DNA of 64,000 nucleotides from an uncultured Planctomycetaceae bacterium (GCA_903871805.1 CAIQIE010000263.1:518-64517), one strand, 5' to 3'. Numbered from the stretch's first letter, positions 44,331 through 64,000 are shown. Program-made: numbers and translations. The notes: generated from the letters alone by a model not told the origin.

Positions 44331-45692
44331 TCAGGGCTGGATGGCTCGCTGGTCGCGGATTGCAGTCTGAAAGCCGGTAATGCTGTTCTCGGACATCTCA
44401 ATTTTTCCTGCTTCGGTGCTAATTCGAATTCCCGTGCGTTTTTCTGGTGCACGGCTTTCCAGAATTCTGTTGCCGGTGAAACGCAGGTCGCGGACTTTAC
44501 CCAGAACCTCAATCGCGACCCCATCCTCACCACCACTGTTTTCAATAGTGTTGTGCTCCAGCACATTACGATTTGGCCAGAAGTCAAGGCCTCGATCCTC
44601 GTTCCGAAAGAGTACCCCAAATGTCCCACTGTTTCGAATCACGTTGTGGCTCATGATATTATCTGTGTCATTGTGACCGATAGACACTCCGTACAGATGA
44701 TTGCCATCGATCACATTGTTTTGTGCCAGTCCGAATTTGACTCCCCAGCACCAGAATAATCCCTGACTATTTCGCTCCAGCCGGTTGCCGATGATCACTG
44801 GCCTCTGGGAACCGGACCCCGGATGAACTCCAAGGTCCGCATTATCGTGACTGTGGCAATCCTGCACCACGACATCATGGCAAATCTGAAAGCTGATCCC
44901 GTCTCCATTATTATTACGCGTAGTCACTCGGCGGATCGTGTATCGTTTGCAGTCCTGCAAAAAGATGCAGCCCCCATAATTTCCATCAAGATGTCCGGTT
45001 TCCCCGCGATTTCCGTCCAGTGCGAGGTCTTCAATCGTGACGTCAGCAGAATGTTCGCCTGTCAGCAGTGGATACAGGCTGTCGCATGTCGGCTTTCCGG
45101 ACAACCAGAGATTTTCCCGAAGTCCATCATTCAGGCAGATGCGATTTCCGCTGCGGGCAATCAGTGTGCGTTTGATGACTGTCATCGCCCCATTGTGAGG
45201 ATTGGTCGCTCGCAGTACGACACCGTCACCGAGGCGAAATCCGGAAGCATCCCGGAGTGTGATTTCCTGGTCATACCAGTCCGAATCAGCCGCCAGCTCA
45301 GTGGAAACAGACGCCGGTCGGGTCAGGACCGTGTCGACTCCGCTGCCAATCAATCGAGTTCGTGATGGAATGACGACGGAATTTCTCAGTTGCCATGTGC
45401 CCGGAAGAAGCTTTACCGTACCGCCGCCAAGCCTTGCTACACTGTCCACTGCCGCCTGCAAAACCCGGTCACTGCTGCCCATCATGTCGCCGGAATCCAC
45501 GCCCACTGTCAGCGTCAGCATTTCGTCCCAGACAGGCTGAGCCCTTTCGTCGCCGTCCGTAGCCCGAGGGTTACGAACTTCCGGGGGCTGCGCACTGACT
45601 GCACTGCGCCCTGATAAAGCTGCCAGTGCGCCGGAACTCAGGCCGGCAAGGAAATTTCTTCGAAGCAGTCCCCGCGATCGTGTCGGTTTCAT
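44331..45692 (-). CDS. Tat-exported right-handed parallel beta-helix repeat protein
   Basis: Twin-arginine signal (SRGLLRRNFLAGLSSGALAAL) from the internal ATG at 45692. It carries repeated NxxxxGN/ IxxNxI beta-helix turns (VVQDCHSHDN, IIGNRLERN, NNVIDGN, HNVIRNS, EHNTIENS, TGNRILES). Confidence 0.75.
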   Translation of the reverse strand: MKPTRSRGLLRRNFLAGLSSGALAALSGRSAVSAQPPEVRNPRATDGDERAQPVWDEMLTLTVGVDSGDMMGSSDRVLQAAVDSVARLGGGTVKLLPGTWQLRNSVVIPSRTRLIGSGVDTVLTRPASVSTELAADSDWYDQEITLRDASGFRLGDGVVLRATNPHNGAMTVIKRTLIARSGNRICLNDGLRENLWLSGKPTCDSLYPLLTGEHSADVTIEDLALDGNRGETGHLDGNYGGCIFLQDCKRYTIRRVTTRNNNGDGISFQICHDVVVQDCHSHDNADLGVHPGSGSQRPVIIGNRLERNSQGLFWCWGVKFGLAQNNVIDGNHLYGVSIGHNDTDNIMSHNVIRNSGTFGVLFRNEDRGLDFWPNRNVLEHNTIENSGGEDGVAIEVLGKVRDLRFTGNRILESRAPEKRTGIRISTEAGKIEMSENSITGFQTAIRDQRAIQP

Positions 45693-45918
45693 GGAAACTC
45701 CTGTGAGTATCGAGCAGCCTGCTGTGGGAGTCCTGCCGATCGTACTGTCAGGTACTCCTCCCGGCATATTGTCCGTGGAGACAATCACACGTTCGCCAGG
45801 AATTGCCCACGGCCACGGAGACTGTCGGCCGCTCATGTTCTCATTTCTGCATCAGACAGGCAAGCAGCCCGCGGGACGGCCGTCGCATGATTTCAGCACA
45901 GATCTGTGCGTCAACGCA

Positions 45919-52314: not shown

Positions 52315-55300
52315 GTGCTTCGGAAATTCAGGATTCGGTGCGACATGCTGTTTCAGGTCCAAATTGTTTCTGTACTCGCAATGCTTTCCCTGGTGCTTTC
52401 GGATTCTTTTGGTCAGGGACAGTCTCTGGAGGAATCGCTGAAATCTATTCCAGGCCAGGTGCTGGCGGCAGAGGCGGCGCAGGCTGGCGATGCTGTGCGG
52501 GGAGCAATCGTATTTCATCAGCAGCAAATGCAGTGCTCAAAATGCCATACGGTCGGTCAGACCGACCTGCTTCTGGCTGGCCCCAATCTGACAGCCATCG
52601 GATTGCAGGAATCCGATGCCGCTCTGGTGGAATCCGTGCTGATGCCCTCGAAAGTGATTCGGAAAGGCTTTGAGACCACCACCATTTTGATGAAGGATGG
52701 CAAAACAGTCGCTGGCCTGCTGACAGAACGGACGGATCAGTACGTTATCCTGAAGGATCCAGCGCGATTCGGAGAATCTGTACGAATTCCTATCGAAGAG
52801 ATCGATGAGATTGTCGCGAGCGAAGTGTCCCTGATGCCCGTCGGGCAGGTCAATCAGCTCAGCAGCCGCCAGCAGTTTCTGGATTTGATTCGCTACCTTA
52901 TGGAGATTCGTAACGGGGGTGCGAAGCGCGCTCGTGAACTTCAGCCATCGCCCGCCCTGCTGACTTTTCAGATTCCGGAGTATGAACAAACGATTGACCA
53001 CGCCGGCTTTCTGAGAGGTCTGGATCAGGAATCCTTTAAACGGGGCGAGGCAATCTATCAGCGGGTCTGTCGAAACTGCCATGGCACAAAGGACGAGCCC
53101 GGATCTTTGCCGACGTCGCTGCGATTCGCCGAAGGAAAGTTTCGCAGTGGTCATGATCCATTCACAATGTACCAGACGCTGACCCGAGGCTTCGGGCTGA
53201 TGGCCGCTCAGACATGGATGGTTCCGTCGCAGAAATATGATGTCATCCATTATATACGGGAAACTTTCCTGCGTCCCCATAACCCATCGCAGTGGAGCGA
53301 GATGACAGAGGTCTACCTTGCGAATCTGCCGCAGGGTGATTCCCGCGGGCCTGAACCTGGCAACATTCAACCGTGGAGTGCCATGGACTATGGCCCCGCT
53401 CTTACGCATTCCTATGAAATACCCGGAGGCCCGCTGAATATCGCTCAGAAGGGAATGGCTATTCGGCTGGATCCCGGCGCCGGTGGAGTCTCCCGCGGAC
53501 AACACTGGATGATTTTCGACACAGACACCCTGCGAATGGCTGCTGCATGGAGTTCCCCGGAAAAACAGGATTCCGAACGAAATTTTATTGACTGGCGCGG
53601 AATTCAGTTCAACGGCGAACACCAGATTCATCCTCGAATCAGTGGAACGGTGACTGCGGAAAATTCCAACGGCCCGGGATGGGCGGATCCCCGGACGGGA
53701 AGTCTGACCGATGATCAGCGTGTTGAGGGACGCGATGGCAGACGCTACGGTCCACTACCGCGAACATGGGGACGTTTCCGCGGTCAGTATCTGTACCAGA
53801 ACAAAGTTATTCTGGCCTATGACGTCGGGGGCGCAGAGATTCTGGAAATGCCAGGAGTTCTGGGGGAGTCAGCAGAGAATTCGCACGCTGTATTTACTCG
53901 TACGTTGAATATCGGACCACGCCGGCAGGAACTGCTGCTGCAGGTTTGCGAGCAGAAGGGCGCGGGGCTGATCACTGGACAAAACCCGGCGGCCAGGACC
54001 GCTGGTGATCGGTCCGTACTTTTTGGCCGTCACGCGGAAGCTGACGAGGCGGCTGGGGCAGCAGCGCCCCTGCGATTTGATGGTTCTACGTTCGTGGAAC
54101 TTTCTGACGCATCGGGCCTTGATATGACCCGTCAGGATTTCACGATCACGGCGCGTCTGAAAACCACCGCCAACGGAACCATTTTCTCGCTGTCGGGAGC
54201 TGGCGAAAAATGGATGCCCGATGGTCAGACATTTTTTGTGAGTGACGGCCATCTTGGGTTTGATATCGGCTGGGTGGGAGCCGTGAAGTCCGGCCGAAAG
54301 GTCAACGATGATAAATGGCATACGGTGGCGGTGACCTGGGATCACGTTGAAAGGAAGGTACAGTTGTGGATTGATGGACAGTTGGACGGAAGCGGAGTGT
54401 TGTCTGCAGGGGCGCGACCGGAGAACGCTGTCGCTCGGATCGGATTCACCAGGCAGGACTTTCCGCAGCCGGAAACCTTCTTCACGGGGAACCTGCAGAA
54501 TGTGCGTTTCTTTCAGCGAGCCCTCACCAATCAACGACTAAGAGATGAAGAGACATTGGCTGAAGCGTCAGAAGGGCTTCGGGGACACTGGGTATTCGCA
54601 GGGGCTGCGGGGGAAAGCATTATCGATGCCTCGGGGAATCAGAAGCCTGCCCGGATTCGCCGCGGGAAAGCAACCGCACCGATTGATGTACCGATCGCCG
54701 CCGGTATATCCCCCGACGTTTCCGATCTCGACTGGGTCGTCAAGGAAGACCAGTTGTGTCTGAGAATTCCTGCGGGGTCGGAATCACTGAGGTTTACGCT
54801 CTGGATGGCAGCTCATCCAAATTCCCAGGAACCGGCACCGGATCCTGCAATTCCCGATGCGGGGGCTGATTTGAAAGCCCTGACACAGGGGGGACCAGCA
54901 CGATGGCCGCAGAAACTCGTGACGCGGATTGCCCCAATGAGCGACCAGGGGGCATTTGCCTCAGATCTGTTGACAGCGCCAGAAACTAACCCATGGCTGG
55001 CACAGACACGTTTTACCGGACTGGATTTCTTCGCGGATGGTCGTATGGCGGCCTGCACCTGGGACGGTGATGTCTGGGTAATCTCCGGCGTCCCGGATGG
55101 GCCGGAACTGCAATGGCAGCGAATTGTCTCGGGGCTATATCAGCCGCTGGGTCTGAAAATTCTGAATGATACTATTTATCTGACATGCCGGGACCAGCTG
55201 GCTGTCCTTCGTGATCTGAACGGCGATGGAGAAACGGACTTTGTGGAGTGCCTGAATAATGACCATCAGGTCACCGAGCACTTTCATGAATTTGCTATGG

Positions 55301-56280
55301 GGCTTCAAGCGGATGAGTCTGGTAACTTCTACTATGCGAAATCGGGCAGGCATGCATTGGAAGCCGTTGTGCCACATCATGGCACGCTGCTCCGCGTTTC
55401 TCCGGACGGAACGCGGACGGATATTGTCGCCACAGGATTTCGAGCAGCCAATGGAGTTTGCCTGAATCCGGATGGCTCGTTCGTCGTGACAGATCAGGAG
55501 GGATTCTGGAATCCAAAAAATCGCATCAACTGGGTAACGCCGGGGGCACAGGGAAAACCAGGATTCTACGGCAACATGTTTGGCTACCATGATGTCACCG
55601 ATTCCTCTGATTCAGCGATGGAACCTCCACTTTGCTGGATCACCAATGAGTTCGATCGATCTCCCGGAGAGTTACTCTGGGTAAACAGCCATAAATGGGG
55701 ACCACTGAATGGATCGTTGCTGAATCTATCCTATGGATACGGCAAGGTCTTTCTGGTGCCGCATGAATCAGTCGGAGGACAGATGCAGGGAGGCATGATT
55801 GAACTGCCGATACCGGCATTTCCTGCCGGCATCATGCGCGGACGATTTCATCCCAAAGACGGACAGCTGTATCTGTGTGGCATGTTTGCATGGGCCGGCA
55901 GCGCAACGCATCCTGGCGGGATCTACAGACTGCGGACAACTGGAAAAGAAATGCATTTGCCGGTTCAACTGCACGCAGAAAAGCAGGGGATCTCGCTGGG
56001 TTTCACGGCACCCATTGACATCTCCAGCGTCACCCCGGAAAACTTTGAAATCAAAGTCTGGGATTTGAAAAGGACGGCTGGTTACGGGTCACAACACTTC
56101 AACGAACGTCCGTTGGAAGTTTCAGCGGCCAATGTCAGCGACGACGGCCTGCACGTGACCGTGCAGATCCCGAAACTGGGGCCAACCTGGGGTATGGAAA
56201 TCAGGTACAGCCTGAAATCCAGATCAGGAGAACCAGTCGATGGCAGAATTCACAATACGATTCACCATTTCCCGGAATAA
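52315..56280 (+). CDS. Large secreted dihaem cytochrome c / LamG / beta-propeller protein (PVC-type haem-binding CxxCH family)
   Basis: It has two CxxCH sites (CSKCHTVG, CRNCHGT) and a LamG/ConA-like block (FTITARLKTT...DDKWHTVAVTWD...LWIDGQLDG). The C-terminal region resembles glucose/sorbosone-dehydrogenase-like propellers. The signal-peptide-like start is at the ATG at 52345 (MLFQVQIVSVLAMLSLVL). Confidence 0.8.
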   Translation: MLRKFRIRCDMLFQVQIVSVLAMLSLVLSDSFGQGQSLEESLKSIPGQVLAAEAAQAGDAVRGAIVFHQQQMQCSKCHTVGQTDLLLAGPNLTAIGLQESDAALVESVLMPSKVIRKGFETTTILMKDGKTVAGLLTERTDQYVILKDPARFGESVRIPIEEIDEIVASEVSLMPVGQVNQLSSRQQFLDLIRYLMEIRNGGAKRARELQPSPALLTFQIPEYEQTIDHAGFLRGLDQESFKRGEAIYQRVCRNCHGTKDEPGSLPTSLRFAEGKFRSGHDPFTMYQTLTRGFGLMAAQTWMVPSQKYDVIHYIRETFLRPHNPSQWSEMTEVYLANLPQGDSRGPEPGNIQPWSAMDYGPALTHSYEIPGGPLNIAQKGMAIRLDPGAGGVSRGQHWMIFDTDTLRMAAAWSSPEKQDSERNFIDWRGIQFNGEHQIHPRISGTVTAENSNGPGWADPRTGSLTDDQRVEGRDGRRYGPLPRTWGRFRGQYLYQNKVILAYDVGGAEILEMPGVLGESAENSHAVFTRTLNIGPRRQELLLQVCEQKGAGLITGQNPAARTAGDRSVLFGRHAEADEAAGAAAPLRFDGSTFVELSDASGLDMTRQDFTITARLKTTANGTIFSLSGAGEKWMPDGQTFFVSDGHLGFDIGWVGAVKSGRKVNDDKWHTVAVTWDHVERKVQLWIDGQLDGSGVLSAGARPENAVARIGFTRQDFPQPETFFTGNLQNVRFFQRALTNQRLRDEETLAEASEGLRGHWVFAGAAGESIIDASGNQKPARIRRGKATAPIDVPIAAGISPDVSDLDWVVKEDQLCLRIPAGSESLRFTLWMAAHPNSQEPAPDPAIPDAGADLKALTQGGPARWPQKLVTRIAPMSDQGAFASDLLTAPETNPWLAQTRFTGLDFFADGRMAACTWDGDVWVISGVPDGPELQWQRIVSGLYQPLGLKILNDTIYLTCRDQLAVLRDLNGDGETDFVECLNNDHQVTEHFHEFAMGLQADESGNFYYAKSGRHALEAVVPHHGTLLRVSPDGTRTDIVATGFRAANGVCLNPDGSFVVTDQEGFWNPKNRINWVTPGAQGKPGFYGNMFGYHDVTDSSDSAMEPPLCWITNEFDRSPGELLWVNSHKWGPLNGSLLNLSYGYGKVFLVPHESVGGQMQGGMIELPIPAFPAGIMRGRFHPKDGQLYLCGMFAWAGSATHPGGIYRLRTTGKEMHLPVQLHAEKQGISLGFTAPIDISSVTPENFEIKVWDLKRTAGYGSQHFNERPLEVSAANVSDDGLHVTVQIPKLGPTWGMEIRYSLKSRSGEPVDGRIHNTIHHFPE

Positions 56281-56753: not shown

Positions 56754-56889
56754 CACCATGGGTGCGCCACCATGGGTGCGCCACCATGGGTGCGCCACCA
56801 TGGGTGCGCCACCATGGGTGCGCCACCATGGGTGCGCCACCATGGGTGCGCCACCATGGGTGCGCCACCATGGGTGCGCCATGGGTGCG
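56754..56889. repeat. Perfect 14-bp tandem repeat (CACCATGGGTGCGC), 9 full copies plus one 11-bp truncated copy
   Basis: Read directly from the sequence. Copies run head-to-tail from 56754 to 56879 with no mismatch, then CATGGGTGCG(G). A degenerate half-unit precedes the array at 56745-56753. The array is intergenic, about 360 bp upstream of the 57247 start. Confidence 0.97.
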
Positions 56890-57246
56890 GAATTTTTGCC
56901 CTGGCAGCGTTCGGAGGGCCCCAGTGAGAATGTTGAGAAGGGGGGCCGATTCGGGGTGGGTGGCCCAGTGGGGGTTGAGATTTAGAGCAGGGTTTTCCGG
57001 AGGTGGAGGTGCTGCAGAAATTGCCGGTCGACTGGGGAGCCGGCATTTCCGGCATCTGGTGTATGAGGCCAATCGGCAGTTTCAGGACAATTGGAGTGAT
57101 CGGCAGAACTGTTGAATTCAGAATCATCCACATATCCCGCACATTTTAACTCAACCTGAGGACCAGAATCGTCCGATCGAAAAGAGTAACCGTCACTGCC
57201 GGCGCATCCGGCACACTCCGTTAATACGGCTCGATCGGAACAATCG

Positions 57247-60200
57247 ATGAAACCCACGCGAATCTTTGCCACGGCCTCTCTGTTTTTCAGCAGCATTGCT
57301 CTGATAACGGCGGCGAACATCTCTGCAGGAGATGAGGGCGTTGTCCGGATGTCCTCGTTAAGACCCCAGGAAGGCTCGGTGCCAGTGGCCACGCCGGATC
57401 CTGTGGGTTCCGGGCTTGTACCTCCTTCGTCAGAGGGAACAGCGACTGTGCCTCGGGCGGGAACACCATTGCCTCAGGCGGTTGCTCCGGAGATGTATCC
57501 GCAGCCGAACAGCTATTCGCCTTACTTTGAGCGAACACTGGGGGCCACGGAAGTGGTTCCAGGGGCTGGCTATCGTCCGGAAGCTCCATTTGGCCCGATC
57601 ATGATGTTCGAAACGAACATTGGAAGTGGTCTGGGCTACGACAAGGGCTACCAGCGGCTGAACGCTCGTGTGCCTTACCACATCATCCCGAACACCACGG
57701 TGCTTCTGGGGGACGTTTCAGCGTCCGTGACGTGGGATGGCATGCCGGTCTTCAGTGGTGGCGGCATCTACCGTAACTACGATCCATTCCGGAATCGGAT
57801 CTTTGGTTCCAACGCCTACTTCGACTACGACAAGGGTTACGGCAACGCTGAGTGGACACGAGCCACGGTGGGGCTTGAGTCTCTGGGTAAGTACATTGAC
57901 TTCCGTGCCAATGCCTACATTGTGGCGGGAAGTGATTCCCAGTTGCTCAGCAGTACTCTGCTGCCGGACATCCAGTTGATGGCCAACTCGATTTACAAGA
58001 CTCGGGTTGATGTCCGTGACAATGCCTACTCCGGCGGTGACTTTGAAGTTGGGGGGCCTCTTCCGCTGCTTGGAAAATACGGGATGAACATGTATCCCGG
58101 AGCGTACTTCCTGACCAACAGCTATGGCGGCAGTTCCGTTGGTGCTCAGATTCGATGGGAAGCTCTGATCACTCAGAATCTGACCGTGAATACCTACCTG
58201 ACCCACGACGGAACATTTGACACAAATGCATGGGTGAATCTCCAGTACGAAATTCCGAACTATCGGCAGAAGCGAACTCTGCGAGACCGCGGAACTCGTG
58301 AACGCCTGATGGACCCCGTGGTTCGTGCCGGCCGAATTCATTCCCGCATCGATACGCTGTCAAATCATGAAGCACAGATCAACCCGATGACCGGTCTGGC
58401 GTGGAACCTGATTCACGTAGACCCGAACCTGCTCGCCGCAGGCGACGGTTCCTACGAGAATCCTTTCAATACAATGCAGGCCGCGAAGGTGGCTAACAAT
58501 GCCGGTGTGGACATTCTTCGCATTCGTCCACGTGAGGACGACACGGGAACTAATCTGACGGTGAACGGGGGAATGGGGTTGTTTGATGATCAGATCCTGA
58601 TGTCATCACTGGTTCCACTGGAGCTGGCCCCGGACTGTATCATTCCTACGGATGATCTGACCAACGCACCACTGGCACCACTGATTTCTGATCCGGTGAT
58701 GGTTGCCGGTGGCAGTGTGATTCGTCTGGCCAACAACAACTCGGTGCTGGGTCTGCGAATTGACGGAGCCAACGCTGCTGGCACTGTGTTCGGAAACGCC
58801 ATCTCCAATCCACTTCCGATCACCAACGTAAACCTGACCGGGAACACCTTCTCACAGTATGTGAACGGAGCCAACCTGCAGGATGTGTCTGGACGGGTGA
58901 TTGTACAGAACAACATCTTCGACGGACTTCTTGGGGTATCCGAGAACGGTCTGAATCTGTCGGTGGCCGGTGGTTCTTCCGCCAATGTTCTTGTGGCGGA
59001 CAACACGGCATCCGACAACAGCGGAGCGGGCCTGAAGATTGTTGCCGGCCCGGGGTCAACACTGAACGCTGACAACCCGCTGGGATCAGCACCAACAGGG
59101 ATCCTGAACAACGTGGCCAGCGGCAACGGCACAGGCATCAGCATTGAGGCAAAAACCGGATCAACGGTGAATGCGGTTGTCGAAGGCAATACAGCTGAGC
59201 AGAACACCTTTGATGGTCTGCAGATGGTGGCTGACAATTCCACCTTCAATCTGGCCAGCATGGCTCAGAACAAGCTGAATGACAACATTGGAAATGGTAC
59301 CTTTATTCATTACCTGAATGGCGGCACCTTCAATGCTGTCTCAGAAGATGCCAATGGAAACGGAATACTTGAGCCGGGCGAAGACCTGAACGGCAATGGT
59401 CGCCTTGATCAGGGGATAGTTTCCAACGTGATGAGCAACAACCAGATCGCCGGAATCTGCATCTTTGGTGAAGACGCCAGTGCGGGTGTGTTCGATATTG
59501 GTGGCCCGCGTCCATCTCTGGGCAACATGATGATGGGTAATCGGGAAGGCGGCCTGCTGGTTGACCTGAAAGATACAGCCACAGCTCAGACGGATGCTCT
59601 GTTCAATACGATTCAGGGCGGAAACTCAAAGCCAGGCCTGACTGTGGTTCTGGACTTCATCGACCCGGCCCAGGGCACGGTAGTGGACGCCAACGGTCGG
59701 GCAGTGGGACCTTTCGATCTTGCATCCTACGGATTTAACCCATCGCAGTATGACCTTGTCACACGGGCGATTATGGCAACGGTGGAAGATCACTATAAAA
59801 ACCTTCCGACCAATGCAGACAATCCACTCAGTTCAATTCCTGATGGAGAAGAACTGGACATTGACTTTGTCATCGGAGATACGGGAACCGCACCATCGAA
59901 TGGGGCTACTGAGTACTACGTTGTGACAATTGGTGACAGCACAGCGGCTCCGGCGGGTCTTGCTGGACAGTCTGCTGACATTGGCAACATCCGTGACAAA
60001 AACGGAAATGGCCCGGGACAGGGATTGCTCGGATACCCTCAGGTTAACGGAGCGTCCGCTGTTGGCGTGTATACCAACAACGTCAATCAGCTGAGTTCAC
60101 TGCTGAATCCGCCAAATGCCTTCGGTGGCGCTGTCAACGATGGAATTCGGGTGGACCCCAACAACTCTGCTCCTTATGCAATCACTGCTCTGACGTCAGG

Positions 60201-63200
60201 AAACCTGACGTATACTCGCCGAGCACTTGGTCTGATTGTGTCTCATGAACTTGGCCATGCGTTGTCCCTGCGTCATATCGCAGGAGCAGGTGCGGTGACT
60301 CCAGCCGGAGCAAATCCAATCATGGGAACCCCGGCGATCGACCTGCCTGTTCAGGTGCTTGTGGAAGAATCTCGTTTTTCTCTGAATGGTACCAATCCTG
60401 GCGAACTTCCTGGCGAAGCACCATTCCAGCAGAACGATGTTTCCCAACTGGCCTCTGCAGTCGGGACACGTATTGCCGCCGGTGAATCGAAGGTGGGGAT
60501 TCGAGTCAATGCGACGGATAGTGCTCGTCTGCTCGAGTCGACCTTCAACAACAACTCACTCAGTGCCGGTGAAGATGGCATTGCGATTCTGATGAACAAC
60601 AGTGCTGTTGCAGAAGGTGTGACGATTCAGGGCAACCAGATCGCTGGCGGTGGTGGCAACGGTGTTCGTCTTGTGGCTGACGGTGCGAATGCGGAAATTC
60701 ACGCAGACAGCACAATTGGCGGGTTTGGGACCAACATTTACGGTGGAACTTCCTACAGCCAGGGGAACTTGATCTCCCGCAACGGTGGCGATGGTTTCCG
60801 GGCTGTGGCAGCTAATGGCGGTCTGGTGTATGGCAATCTGCTGAACAACACGATTACAGACAACGGTGGCAATGGTGCTGCTCTGTTGATTGACAATGGC
60901 GGCCGAATGGATTTCGGCACAGTGGCCAGTAACCGCGTGGTTCGCGGCAACACAATCACCGGAAACGGTGGAGCAGGTCTGCTCACGAACCAGCTGACAA
61001 ATCCTTCCACACAGGCCCAGCTGGACGCGACCGTCGTGGGCAATACGTTGTCCAACAACGGTGCTGGCGGTATTGTGTCACGGCTGTTCGGTGCGAACAA
61101 TGCTCCTCCGGCAATTCCAGCCCTCGTCAACAACAACAGGCTGAATCTGAAGGTTGGTGGAACCACAGCTGCAGACGCGAATACGATCAGCGGCAATGCT
61201 GAAGTGGGTGTCGGTGTGCGAGTGACCGGAAACGGTTATGCAAACGTTGATATGAAGAATGTCACCGTATCCGGAACAACAAACGGTGCTGACCCAACCT
61301 TTGACGGCGACGGAATCGCGTTCAATCGAGAGGGCTCTTCCCTGCTGACAGCAACGCTGTCTGGTGTGAATTCGACCGGAAATGCTGGTGATGGATTGAA
61401 TGTCAGCACTCAGGGAACGGACAAAACTGATCTGAATCAGCCATTCTCCGGTACCGCGAACACTGTCACAGCAATCGACAGTAACTTCAGCAGCAACGGA
61501 CAGAATGGTGCGTCGTTCACTGCTCGCGGTGACTCGACACTGATTGCGGATCTGACCAGAAGCACCTTCAGTGGCAACACTGCGAACGGTATTCAGGTCA
61601 ACACCTCGGAGAACGCCTCATTCGGAGACCCGAACGTGGGGCTGCCTCCGGGACGACGATCGGTGTTCAATGGTCTGGTTGTGAACGGCAACGGCAACGA
61701 CGGTGTGCAGATCAATGCCACTGAAGCGTCCCGAGCTCTGGTTGAAATCTCCAGCACACCAGGTGCAGCCGGTAGCGGAGCTCATGCCGCAGCCAGCACT
61801 CTTGGCAGCACAAGCATCTCCGACAACGGTCGCGATGGTGTTCGAATCGACACGACTGGTGGTCGCTCCGACATCCTGGTGACGTCCAACGCCGGTGCCA
61901 AAACCACGATTGACGGCAACGGGACGAACGGTGGTGGTAACGGGATCCGTTGGAACGCCAGCGGGGACTCTGATGGAACCCTTCGCGTGACCAACACCAC
62001 GATCAGTGGCAGCATCCGCGGGGCCAGTGAAGACGTTAATGGCGACGGTGTACTGAGCGCTGCGGAAGACCTGAACAACAACGGTGACATCGATATCGCA
62101 GACGGTGATGGTATCCAGGCCAATTTCTCAGAGAATGCGAACGCGACTCTGGTCGTCGGTAACGTTGGACAGGGCAATACGATCCAGAACAACCAGGACG
62201 ACGGGATCGCAATCACAGCAACCGGAAGCGACCTGACAGGAAATCCCCGTCCGATCATCAACATCTCGCACAATACCATCGGCGGTTCAGCCTCCGGGAT
62301 CACGGCCGGCAATGGTGGTGATGGTGTGAGCCTGAATGTGTTCGGTGGAACCGCGGTGGGTGTCGCACCTGGCCAGGTGGACTTCACCTCACCAGGTCTG
62401 ACGTTCAATGGAGGTGTTTCTGAAAGTGGGGCTGTGCCGCAGTTCACGATGACGAACAACGTGGTGACCAATAACGGTGCCCGGGGTATCAATCTGCTGC
62501 TGACGGGAGCGTCCGGAGATCGACGCCGGGATCCAACACCGTACTTCTTCGATCCTGTACGAATCTCCGTTCGCGACAACACAGTGGAAGCCAACGGTGC
62601 GGAAGGTGTGTTCTACCGAGCTGACTCGGACATGAACCAGAGCCGATTCGTCTACCTTGCCAACACAGGTGCACCTGGCGACGACAATCAGAACTGGCTG
62701 CCGATACGACCGGAATTCACATTCCTGAACTTTGGCAGTGTTAACGGCAATACAACCTACCTGTCACCCTACCTGAATCTGAACTCTGTCCAGAACAGTC
62801 TGTTTGAGCTGACTGGCAACACAATTCGGAATAATGGTCGGGCAGGCGTCACGGGAGAAGGCGTGAGAATTGATGTCGGCACCGGAGCCTATGTGGCTGC
62901 TGATGTTCAAAACAATACCTTTGGTGGAAATCTGGAAGCGGACTTCGCGACATCTTCCTTCCTGTCTGCCGGCAACACGTTTGATTCCAGCGACGAGTCT
63001 GGTGTAGATACCTTCGACTTCGTCTACCTTGACGATGTCGCTCAGATGGATCTGCGATTCCAGACCAACAGCGGTAACCAGATTGCACCGGACGACTTTG
63101 GTGCCGTCTACACGAACCTGGATCCTCTGAAGGAACAGTGGTTTGGAACAATCGACGTGGTACAGCGAGACGCCTCGTTCTTCCAGGTCGACAATGGCCC

Positions 63201-63345
63201 GAACCTGAACAGTCCGAACAATCAGTTCTTCACGTTCGGAATCACTCAGAACATCCAGAACGCCTTCAACGTCGGTGGTTACAACATTCGTGGTGCGGCC
63301 GATCCACTGTGGCCGAATCCAGGATTCACCCCATTCCTGCCATAG
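57247..63345 (+). CDS. Giant (2032 aa) surface protein: inverse-autotransporter-like N-terminal beta-barrel plus parallel beta-helix passenger with an embedded metzincin-like zinc-binding motif
   Basis: Signal peptide, a Pro-rich linker, and residues ~118-338 that resemble the intimin/invasin beta-domain. The rest consists of hundreds of residues of NxxxxNGxxG beta-helix turns. HELGHALSLRH lies at residues 1000-1010 with a downstream Met (NPIMGTP), and there are two Asp/Asn/Gly calcium-loop clusters. It is monocistronic with a strong terminator. Confidence 0.85.
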   Translation: MKPTRIFATASLFFSSIALITAANISAGDEGVVRMSSLRPQEGSVPVATPDPVGSGLVPPSSEGTATVPRAGTPLPQAVAPEMYPQPNSYSPYFERTLGATEVVPGAGYRPEAPFGPIMMFETNIGSGLGYDKGYQRLNARVPYHIIPNTTVLLGDVSASVTWDGMPVFSGGGIYRNYDPFRNRIFGSNAYFDYDKGYGNAEWTRATVGLESLGKYIDFRANAYIVAGSDSQLLSSTLLPDIQLMANSIYKTRVDVRDNAYSGGDFEVGGPLPLLGKYGMNMYPGAYFLTNSYGGSSVGAQIRWEALITQNLTVNTYLTHDGTFDTNAWVNLQYEIPNYRQKRTLRDRGTRERLMDPVVRAGRIHSRIDTLSNHEAQINPMTGLAWNLIHVDPNLLAAGDGSYENPFNTMQAAKVANNAGVDILRIRPREDDTGTNLTVNGGMGLFDDQILMSSLVPLELAPDCIIPTDDLTNAPLAPLISDPVMVAGGSVIRLANNNSVLGLRIDGANAAGTVFGNAISNPLPITNVNLTGNTFSQYVNGANLQDVSGRVIVQNNIFDGLLGVSENGLNLSVAGGSSANVLVADNTASDNSGAGLKIVAGPGSTLNADNPLGSAPTGILNNVASGNGTGISIEAKTGSTVNAVVEGNTAEQNTFDGLQMVADNSTFNLASMAQNKLNDNIGNGTFIHYLNGGTFNAVSEDANGNGILEPGEDLNGNGRLDQGIVSNVMSNNQIAGICIFGEDASAGVFDIGGPRPSLGNMMMGNREGGLLVDLKDTATAQTDALFNTIQGGNSKPGLTVVLDFIDPAQGTVVDANGRAVGPFDLASYGFNPSQYDLVTRAIMATVEDHYKNLPTNADNPLSSIPDGEELDIDFVIGDTGTAPSNGATEYYVVTIGDSTAAPAGLAGQSADIGNIRDKNGNGPGQGLLGYPQVNGASAVGVYTNNVNQLSSLLNPPNAFGGAVNDGIRVDPNNSAPYAITALTSGNLTYTRRALGLIVSHELGHALSLRHIAGAGAVTPAGANPIMGTPAIDLPVQVLVEESRFSLNGTNPGELPGEAPFQQNDVSQLASAVGTRIAAGESKVGIRVNATDSARLLESTFNNNSLSAGEDGIAILMNNSAVAEGVTIQGNQIAGGGGNGVRLVADGANAEIHADSTIGGFGTNIYGGTSYSQGNLISRNGGDGFRAVAANGGLVYGNLLNNTITDNGGNGAALLIDNGGRMDFGTVASNRVVRGNTITGNGGAGLLTNQLTNPSTQAQLDATVVGNTLSNNGAGGIVSRLFGANNAPPAIPALVNNNRLNLKVGGTTAADANTISGNAEVGVGVRVTGNGYANVDMKNVTVSGTTNGADPTFDGDGIAFNREGSSLLTATLSGVNSTGNAGDGLNVSTQGTDKTDLNQPFSGTANTVTAIDSNFSSNGQNGASFTARGDSTLIADLTRSTFSGNTANGIQVNTSENASFGDPNVGLPPGRRSVFNGLVVNGNGNDGVQINATEASRALVEISSTPGAAGSGAHAAASTLGSTSISDNGRDGVRIDTTGGRSDILVTSNAGAKTTIDGNGTNGGGNGIRWNASGDSDGTLRVTNTTISGSIRGASEDVNGDGVLSAAEDLNNNGDIDIADGDGIQANFSENANATLVVGNVGQGNTIQNNQDDGIAITATGSDLTGNPRPIINISHNTIGGSASGITAGNGGDGVSLNVFGGTAVGVAPGQVDFTSPGLTFNGGVSESGAVPQFTMTNNVVTNNGARGINLLLTGASGDRRRDPTPYFFDPVRISVRDNTVEANGAEGVFYRADSDMNQSRFVYLANTGAPGDDNQNWLPIRPEFTFLNFGSVNGNTTYLSPYLNLNSVQNSLFELTGNTIRNNGRAGVTGEGVRIDVGTGAYVAADVQNNTFGGNLEADFATSSFLSAGNTFDSSDESGVDTFDFVYLDDVAQMDLRFQTNSGNQIAPDDFGAVYTNLDPLKEQWFGTIDVVQRDASFFQVDNGPNLNSPNNQFFTFGITQNIQNAFNVGGYNIRGAADPLWPNPGFTPFLP

Positions 63346-63378: not shown

Positions 63379-63413
63379 GGGCTGCCCGGTTTTCCGGGCA
63401 GCCCGTTTTCGTT
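63379..63413 (+). terminator. Rho-independent terminator of the giant gene
   Basis: GGGCTGCCCGG-TTTT-CCGGGCAGCCC forms a perfect 11-bp stem and is followed by GTTTTCGTT. Confidence 0.85.
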
Positions 63414-63649: not shown

Positions 63650-64000
63650 ATGCGTAAGCTGCATCGTCGCTCTGTAATCAAGGGGCTTGCTGGTGTGTCT
63701 CTGGCCCTGCCGGTTCTGCAGGCCATGGGAGAAGAAGTCAGCAGTCAGACTCCGCGCCGCTTTTGTGCGATGTACACCGCGAATGGGATGTCTTTGCCCA
63801 ATGCCGACAACGGAATCGGTGACTGGAGCTGGTTTCCGCAGACAGAAGGGGCCGCGTTTGAATTCGGTAAGTCCACGGAACCCTTGCGTCCCTTCCGCGA
63901 ACACCTCAGCTTTCTCGGAGGCCTGCATCATTCGTCGGGGGTAAAAGCAGATCCGCATATGTGTTCGGATATGTGGCTGACGGGAGCGCCGCTGCACAAT
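63650..64000 (+). CDS. DUF1552-family protein (5' part, runs off the window)
   Basis: My own translation from the ATG at 63650 is [30 protein letters not shown]...[15 protein letters not shown]...WSWFPQTEG...[16 protein letters not shown]. This is the typical DUF1552 N-terminus (Tat-like RR, LALPxLxxM, xYxxNG, LSGL). The frame is open to the window end. It is not in the ORF track because it has no stop. Confidence 0.85.

Follow-up and report, generated by a model that had tools for sequence, protein, structure and literature searches.

An intimin/invasin-type barrel followed by a beta-helical passenger with a zinc-protease-like module in a giant planctomycete protein

Gene and domain organization

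The window analyzed here, i.e., the whole stretch of 64,000 nucleotides (nt) from an uncultured Planctomycetaceae bacterium (GCA_903871805.1, CAIQIE010000263.1:518-64517), contains at positions 57247-63345 of the plus strand an ATG-to-stop open reading frame (ORF), read from the window sequence, that encodes a protein of 2032 amino acids (aa). The product is very probably a cell-surface protein of a freshwater planctomycete, in which an outer-membrane barrel of the intimin/invasin type is followed by a long beta-helix stalk with a zinc-protease-like module. According to the translation and the domain coordinates, signal peptide, N-terminal barrel and C-terminal passenger succeed one another in a single polypeptide, whose parts are the following:

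57247-57327, plus strand: signal peptide, residues ~1-27 (MKPTRIFATASLFFSSIALITAANISA), recognized by its n-region, hydrophobic core and small residues where cleavage is likely
57328-57597, plus strand: Pro-rich spacer, residues 28-117, delimited by Pro content, with a GVVRM motif near its start
57598-58251, plus strand: 12-stranded outer-membrane beta-barrel of the inverse autotransporter (IAT) type, residues 118-335, from the AlphaFold2 model, Foldseek, Pfam and the family profile
58252-58422, plus strand: linker, residues 336-392 (...RDRGTRERLMDPVVRAGRIHSRID...), from family conservation
58423-59658, plus strand: first right-handed beta-helix with N-terminal cap, residues 393-804, from the AlphaFold2 model, Foldseek and the profile of alignment A2
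59347-59418, plus strand: EF-hand-like loop pair, residues 701-724 (DANGNGILEPGE DLNGNGRLDQGI), a pattern match that loops out of the helix
59701-60474, plus strand: metzincin-like alpha/beta module between the helix segments, residues ~819-1076, from the model, Foldseek and weak Pfam matches
60244-60276, plus strand: zinc-binding motif HELGHALSLRH, residues 1000-1010, read from the sequence
60499-62796, plus strand: second, longer beta-helix, residues ~1085-1850, from Pfam, the A2 profile and turn motifs, with approximate boundaries
62032-62103, plus strand: second EF-hand-like pair, residues 1596-1619 (DVNGDGVLSAAE/DLNNNGDIDIAD), a pattern match within the second helix
62797-63345, plus strand: conserved C-terminal domain, residues 1851-2032 and the stop codon, from family conservation

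A preliminary description of this DNA had announced a signal peptide and a Pro-rich linker ahead of a barrel at residues ~118-338, and this layout was borne out in all its parts. The N-terminus consists of a basic n-region (K2, R5) and of hydrophobic residues 7-24 (Kyte-Doolittle values up to 1.77), similar N-termini occur in most family members, and the end of the signal peptide at residue ~27 is approximate, being judged from composition. Proline makes up 19.5% of residues 31-117. The spacer is poorly conserved across the family, no LysM or other Pfam domain was matched in residues 28-117, and the segment is presumed to be periplasmic. Its GVVRM motif lies at residues 31-35 (window 57337-57351); a motif of the form G-[VTS]-[VAS]-R-[LIVM] shortly after the signal peptide was found in 44 of 127 full-length family members, vs. 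two of 127 in a control region, and may constitute a periplasmic sorting or docking signal.

Inverse autotransporter barrel and linker

The sequence strings on which the barrel had initially been proposed are all present in the translation (SNAYFDYD, TVGLE, IDFRANAYI, GGDFEVGGPLP, YPGAYF, VGAQIRWEAL, NLTVNTYLTHDG, and NAWVNLQYEIP). The AlphaFold2 model of residues 91-400 placed exactly 12 strands across residues 118-335 of the protein, so that the boundaries first proposed were essentially exact and the structure prediction returned the expected 12-stranded barrel. When this model was compared with PDB structures by Foldseek, the first three ranks were held by beta-domains of invasin and intimin, namely 4e1t (invasin, E 2.1e-9), 4e1s (intimin, 8.2e-9), and 5g26 (5.5e-8); the invasin/intimin matches comprised 234-237 aligned columns at a template modelling score (TM) of 0.60 on the target and ~16-18% identity. 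Other outer-membrane barrels, including those of the classical autotransporters (Hbp, EspP, NalP, BrkA, and AIDA-I being the weaker fold matches), were about four orders of magnitude weaker (E 1e-5 or worse).

The sequence comparisons gave results that depended on the depth of the query. A single-sequence search of residues 1-418 against the PDB sequences returned nothing meaningful, the whole protein and its N-terminal part had no match in NCBIfam, and a shallow profile (alignment A1) reached invasin at E 0.33, the credible match coming with deeper profiles: a barrel-only profile built from 21 diverse members matched, as its single credible PDB entry, invasin 4e1t (E 3.1e-5), and also a Methylophaga protein annotated as inverse autotransporter (E 8.9e-20). 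In the window protein the match to the Pfam family IAT_beta is limited to residues 182-230 (~48 residues). Nonetheless, IAT_beta was matched at E <= 0.1 in all 10 sequences of the close-homologue alignment (best 4.2e-17), and full-length orthologues exceeded its cut-off with 28.7 (P0013, 2033 aa), 40.8 (P0045), and 63 bits (P0007). The single-sequence Pfam result is inconclusive when taken alone, and the call of an IAT-type barrel made in the preliminary description is settled by the matches in homologues, the scores of the orthologues, the PDB profile match and the fold match. We therefore consider it near-certain that residues 118-335 form a barrel homologous to the beta-domain of intimin and invasin, and that the protein has the corresponding topology.

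An Arg-rich linker (residues 336-392), conserved in the family with the consensus RPxxVxxRLxxxVxRxxRV, comes next; by analogy with intimin and invasin it is presumed to cross the barrel lumen as a plug.

Beta-helical passenger

The passenger comprises ~1640 aa, arranged as a beta-helix, the metzincin-like module, a longer beta-helix and a conserved C-terminal domain. The preliminary description had proposed a beta-helix rather than Ig-like domains, and this proved correct: Pfam Beta_helix (PF13229) was matched in the whole protein at E 5.6e-9 (36.3 bits vs. a cut-off of 25.9), and the AlphaFold2 model of residues 421-1100, computed from 24 sequences, reached a mean predicted local distance difference test score (pLDDT) of 83.5. 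No Pfam match was obtained for Big, Intimin_C or LysM in the window protein or in a 25-member sample of the family, nor for Autotransporter (PF03797) in the window protein. Of the Pfam families suggested at the outset, then, Beta_helix passed its cut-off and Big was absent, whereas IAT_beta stayed below threshold in the window protein and was passed by its orthologues. The Beta_helix match belongs to the full-length scan, as Pfam gave no match on the separate pieces 401-800, 1051-1500, and 1451-2032, and a phmmer search of residues 401-2032 against the PDB also found none.

In the first helix, regular three-strand turns extend over residues 422-804, mostly at pLDDT >90, and are interrupted by a loop at ~698-722. 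Foldseek aligned this segment with AlgE6, AlgE4, AlgG, polygalacturonase and Ag43b, and the A2 profile matched NosD (7o0y) at the same position. The segment is conserved across the family, strongly so in residues 393-500, i.e., in the turns beside the barrel. As regards the second helix, the model to residue 1100 shows it starting at ~1085, the best Pfam Beta_helix stretch covers residues 1081-1152, Asn/Gly turns of the NxxIxxNxxxG type recur throughout, and the A2 profile matches the beta-helices of AlgE4 (2.8e-5) and AlgG. The motif DPH[DE] is catalytic in AlgG and AlgE, enzymes of the mannuronan C5-epimerase type. An alginate-epimerase-like function was rejected, since no DPH, DP[HY][DE] or G[FI]DP string occurs anywhere in the protein, and because this motif is absent the helix is better regarded as a scaffold than as an epimerase.

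Both helices contain a pair of loops that conform to the EF-hand-like pattern D-x-[DN]-x-[DN]-G-x-[ILV]-x3-[DE]. The first pair (residues 701-724), modelled without secondary structure, is kept in the family consensus as EDxNxNGxLxxxEDxNGNGxLD, and judging from the pattern both pairs may be Ca2+ sites. Within the passenger, no part is better conserved across the family than the C-terminal domain (mean identity 0.29-0.41, occupancy 0.89-0.96), which is 48-94% identical in 25 loci; its 182 aa had no Pfam match, and it is presumed to be the distal tip or cap. With a ~260-aa metzincin-like module and a ~180-aa conserved tail, the passenger is not "almost entirely" beta-helix, as had been stated at first.

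Metzincin-like module

Residues 819-1076 were modelled as an alpha/beta domain with long helices, in which the motif HELGHALSLRH sits on a predicted helix and is followed 14 residues later by the tripeptide PIM (1024-1026), a candidate Met-turn. The module shares with the metzincins of the ADAM type (TACE/ADAM17, ADAM10) the HExxHxxxxxH motif on a helix, the conserved downstream Met and a match of the alpha/beta fold; it differs from them in its low identity (10-12%), in a Ser replacing Gly and in lying within a beta-helix instead of following a pro-domain. Among the Pfam peptidase families the best match was Peptidase_M57 (9e-4), followed by weaker ones to DUF4953 ("Met-zincin"), M10 and Reprolysin_3. 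The pattern HE[LI]GHxxSLxH-x13-P[ILMV]M was kept in 21 of 49 related genome loci, although across those 21 the identity of the middle domain is as low as 38-50%, which argues for a working metal site. On these sequence grounds the module is a candidate zinc endopeptidase, and we regard the case for and against protease activity as about evenly balanced.

The region corresponding to residues 801-1100 is variable: close orthologues have the metzincin module, while most members have little or nothing, and an HExxH was present in only 26 of 128 long family members (HExxHxxxxxH in only 16). In alignment A2 four proteins (P0054, P0080, P0113, and P0148) could be read as carrying leishmanolysin-type sequence at the position of the module; Pfam found Peptidase_M8 in four and NIDO in two of 25 members, counts that come without the names of the members concerned. 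From the alignment, the position appears to be one at which the passenger can exchange cassettes.

Distribution of the family

The barrel profile, searched against 1.84 billion cluster representatives, matched 3702 of them at E <= 1e-3 and 366 at E <= 1e-30. Among the best 150 of the 3702, most were 1200-2500 aa long, most had a signal-peptide-like start, and the barrel was N-terminal in almost all. Twenty-four of the best relatives align end to end with the window protein at 25-53% identity, and in the resulting set of 25 full-length members, the window protein included, Pfam identified Beta_helix in 21, IAT_beta in 15, Peptidase_M8 in four, NosD in three, and NIDO and Reprolysin_3 in two each. 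Orthologous ORFs, measured from stop to stop where the contig was long enough, had ~1930-2160 codons.

The family was found mainly in Planctomycetota. Nine close homologues were all planctomycetal where the organism was named, and the named relatives belonged, with one exception, to Planctomycetota. NCBI calls one of the nine "inverse autotransporter beta domain-containing protein", the name that it gives to orthologues, while the cluster mates of the window protein are still listed as "hypothetical protein". In contigs representing one genome per species, 49 loci were recovered from metagenome-assembled genomes of Planctomycetota (Planctomycetaceae, Planctomyces, Fuerstiella, and Schlesneria), except for a few bins labelled Chitinophaga or Kuenenia. 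The loci in these bins (L006, L009, and L026, labelled Chitinophaga; L024, L042, and L044, labelled Candidatus Kuenenia) are close orthologues at 57-70% identity, and the bins are probably mislabelled or contaminated. The nearest loci, L019 and L040, are freshwater-lake bins with 94% identity in the barrel region. The homologue survey with the barrel-only profile yielded 12 proteins, so that the spread of the family outside Planctomycetota is poorly sampled.

Relation to known autotransporters

Intimin (EaeA of enterohaemorrhagic Escherichia coli) and invasin (Yersinia), the type Ve proteins whose barrels are 4e1s and 4e1t, share with the window protein the signal peptide, the N-terminal 12-stranded barrel, the linker and the C-terminal passenger, and the invasin barrel is both the best structural match and the sole PDB sequence-profile match of the window barrel. 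The window protein, however, lacks LysM, the Big_1/Big_2 repeats and the C-type-lectin tip, its passenger is a beta-helix with a peptidase-like insert, and its host is a free-living planctomycete instead of an enteric pathogen. As searches for Big, lectin and LysM domains came out negative, it is a member of the wider IAT family and not an intimin or an invasin.

The classical type Va autotransporters (the SPATEs, i.e., serine protease autotransporters of Enterobacteriaceae, such as EspP and Hbp; pertactin; Ag43) also pair a 12-stranded barrel with a monomeric passenger folded as a right-handed beta-helix, in some cases bearing a protease; Ag43b is among the Foldseek matches of the first helix in the window protein. 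Their barrel, nonetheless, is C-terminal, while that of the window protein is N-terminal, the domain order thus being opposite. The protease of the SPATEs is, besides, a serine protease located at the N-terminal end of the passenger, unlike the zinc metzincin-like domain inserted mid-helix here. A further point of comparison is leishmanolysin (M8), which sister proteins carry at the alignment position of the module (four were read).

The combination of domains had been described as unusual, a claim that the number of matching cluster representatives, the share of full-length members with Beta_helix (21 of 25), the NCBI names and the literature all contradict. In their section 10 and figure 6, Heinz et al. 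(2016; PMC4943183) pointed to a group of invasin_beta barrels with a C-terminal domain of pectin-lyase fold, i.e., to the same pairing of an IAT barrel with a right-handed beta-helix C-terminal region, and drew from that group an argument for the functional equivalence of type Va and type Ve barrels. That section treats the group in one sentence and a figure inset, which mention no taxon, experiment, metzincin insert, EF-hand-like loops or C-terminal domain, and the planctomycetal origin of the sequences of the group is not confirmed there. A 2019 review listed Planctomycetes among the phyla with IATs (PMC6770984). The architecture of barrel and beta-helix is therefore not rare, and it is already recorded in databases and in one survey of 2016. 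Our literature search found no experimental study of a planctomycete IAT, or of any beta-helix IAT, and no paper mentioning the metzincin insert, the EF-hand-like loops or the conserved C-terminal domain; what is new here are undescribed details of a known but uncharacterized kind of protein, and current understanding is not overturned.

Proposed export, function and alternatives

In type Ve systems passengers are secreted from the N- to the C-terminus, and the known role of the IAT barrel is passenger export (PMC6555100). By analogy with intimin and invasin, surface export of the passenger is likely also here. The protein would be exported by Sec (PMC6555100), the beta-barrel assembly machinery (BAM) would insert the barrel into the outer membrane, the linker would adopt a hairpin within the barrel lumen, and the passenger would be threaded outward, N-terminus first. 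The first turns of the beta-helix could then fold outside the cell and act as a ratchet against sliding back of the chain, an N-to-C folding that would mirror the C-to-N folding of type Va passengers with their C-terminal autochaperone. Once complete, the protein would stay anchored by its barrel and expose a beta-helix stalk, probably stiffened by Ca2+, with a zinc endopeptidase module part-way and a conserved tip. It probably serves to cleave proteins at the cell surface, to attach the cell to particles or polymers, or to do both.

Taken as a whole, the reading of the protein as a type Ve (inverse) autotransporter whose passenger is beta-helical and bears a protease appears to us the probable one, with appreciable room for doubt, as several results weigh against it. 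Confidence in the barrel model is low (mean pLDDT 55; shallow alignment), the window protein scored 19.5-21.5 bits against IAT_beta (PF11924; E 2e-4 to 8e-4), below the gathering cut-off of 22.3, and the IAT_beta matches in its relatives span only profile positions ~49-186 of 279. A short helix was predicted at linker residues 348-354, but at a pLDDT of ~33. In the comparison of the module with the catalytic domains of TACE/ADAM17 and ADAM10, Foldseek gave E 4e-3 to 4e-2 and a target TM of ~0.43, the Pfam peptidase matches were weak (E 9e-4 to 0.2, all below the cut-offs), and Ser occupies the usual Gly position of HExxHxxGxxH. Furthermore, the barrel, the topology and the motifs are known from sequence and models, while outer-membrane location, surface exposure and enzyme activity were deduced.

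In one alternative, the protein is an inverse autotransporter but its passenger works solely as an adhesin or structural fibre, the HExxH module being inactive and serving for binding only. The known IATs intimin, invasin, YeeJ and InvD all act by binding (PMC6555100), most family members lack an HExxH, and conservation resides in the helices and the C-terminal domain. We consider this alternative unlikely all the same, as three His, the Glu and the downstream Met were retained in the 21 orthologous loci in spite of the divergence of the middle domain, and as in other members this position is occupied by another peptidase family (M8), a replacement that suggests selection for proteolysis there. 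Somewhat less probable still is that the barrel acts only as an outer-membrane anchor or pore and the beta-helix stays in the periplasm, e.g., as a tethered NosD- or AlgG-like enzyme. The closest structural matches of the first helix do include the periplasmic AlgG and NosD, the planctomycete envelope is unusual, and export was deduced; on the other hand, the barrel is specifically of the IAT type, with a conserved linker, in a family whose known role is passenger export (PMC6555100), a rigid rod of ~1600 aa would be hard to fit in the periplasm, and the AlgE/AlgG catalytic motif DPH[DE] is missing. That the barrel is a chance resemblance, the segment being another outer-membrane barrel or none, would agree with a Pfam match of ~48 residues below cut-off, with a single sequence devoid of significant PDB matches and with the mean pLDDT of the model, but is largely refuted and highly improbable given orthologues scoring up to 63 bits, a PDB profile match to invasin alone, the lead of invasin and intimin as the top three folds by about four orders of magnitude and the retrieval of a proteobacterial IAT.

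The reading as a type Ve autotransporter with a protease-bearing, beta-helical passenger implies that passengers other than Ig-like adhesins can follow an intimin/invasin barrel, and it supports the idea of type Va and type Ve barrels as interchangeable export devices, as suggested in the section of Heinz et al. (2016; PMC4943183) devoted to that group. The profile search, with its thousands of sequence clusters, points to a very large family of giant planctomycete surface proteins. The metzincin-like insert suggests proteolysis bound to the surface, which bears on the feeding of these particle-attached bacteria, and a beta-helix folding from N to C during export would offer a clean test case for the model of folding-driven secretion. 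A broader proposal is that Planctomycetes expanded a distinct type Ve branch, with an N-to-C beta-helix stalk and a mid-stalk cassette for zinc peptidases (an ADAM-like metzincin here, a leishmanolysin-like M8 in others, nothing in most), whose members would be surface proteases or adhesins for particle feeding; we advance it tentatively, and as a joint claim it is more apt to fail than to hold. If true, it would provide a natural test of whether vectorial folding of a beta-helix drives secretion in either direction, and a handle on outer-membrane protein biogenesis in Planctomycetes, which to our knowledge has not been experimentally studied in this phylum.

Flanking sequences and neighboring genes

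The non-coding DNA on either side of the gene contains two further features:

57070-57246, plus strand: conserved stretch of 177 nt directly 5' of the start codon, from nucleotide identity to L019 and L040
63379-63414, plus strand: intrinsic-terminator-like hairpin and T-rich tail, with an 11-bp stem, a 4-nt loop and then GTTTTCGTTG

The previous gene ends at 56280, and a non-coding stretch of 967 nt separates it from the ORF start at 57247. Only the last 177 nt of this stretch (57070-57246) matched the two nearest loci, with ~90% identity vs. ~81% over the gene as a whole, and no match was obtained for the remaining intergenic DNA; from this conservation, the segment could be a promoter or 5'-leader element. 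No riboswitch or known RNA was found by an Rfam scan of the long 5' region, where nothing scored better than E 0.14. The repeat array reported in the preliminary description does exist as a perfect tandem array of the 14-nt unit CACCATGGGTGCGC (9.1 copies, 100% match) at 56754-56881, with edges to ~56890; it is intergenic, 365 nt upstream of the start codon, and the final unit folds into a small hairpin with a T-run (56875-56889) that resembles a terminator. As a part of the system it was rejected, because none of the 20 orthologues checked has it upstream, not even at the loci with 94% protein identity, and its unit occurred in none of the 49 loci; the array is strain-specific. The strong terminator, too, had been correctly noted: 10 of the 11 stem pairs in the hairpin at 63379-63404 are G-C, and a T-rich tail follows, although terminator-like sites in the region (7 found) are as numerous as expected from shuffled sequence (7.0).

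The gene stands alone, in agreement with its initial description as monocistronic. Its neighbors in the window encode MetH, a 3-keto-disaccharide hydrolase family protein, a cytochrome c/LamG protein and a DUF1552 protein, and are unrelated to secretion; flanking genes were common only to L019 and L040, and a conserved partner gene or operon was rejected on that account. With unrelated neighbors and a gene order shared by the nearest relatives alone, the gene behaves as a self-contained unit, and this stand-alone context fits a self-contained secretion unit.

The upstream neighbor (52315-56280, plus strand) encodes 1321 aa with Cytochrome_CBB3, DUF6797, Laminin_G_3 and a weak SGL match, a set of domains typical of large planctomycete haem-binding proteins, and is syntenic only in L019 and L040. 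The downstream gene starts at 63650 and continues past the end of the window (63650-63997, plus strand); its product belongs to DUF1552 (HXXSHH), and its N-terminus is twin-arginine-like. A separate protein of 500 aa encoded at 44331-45833 on the minus strand carries Beta_helix (1.1e-16) and NosD and no IAT barrel, and its likeness to the main gene is one of fold only.

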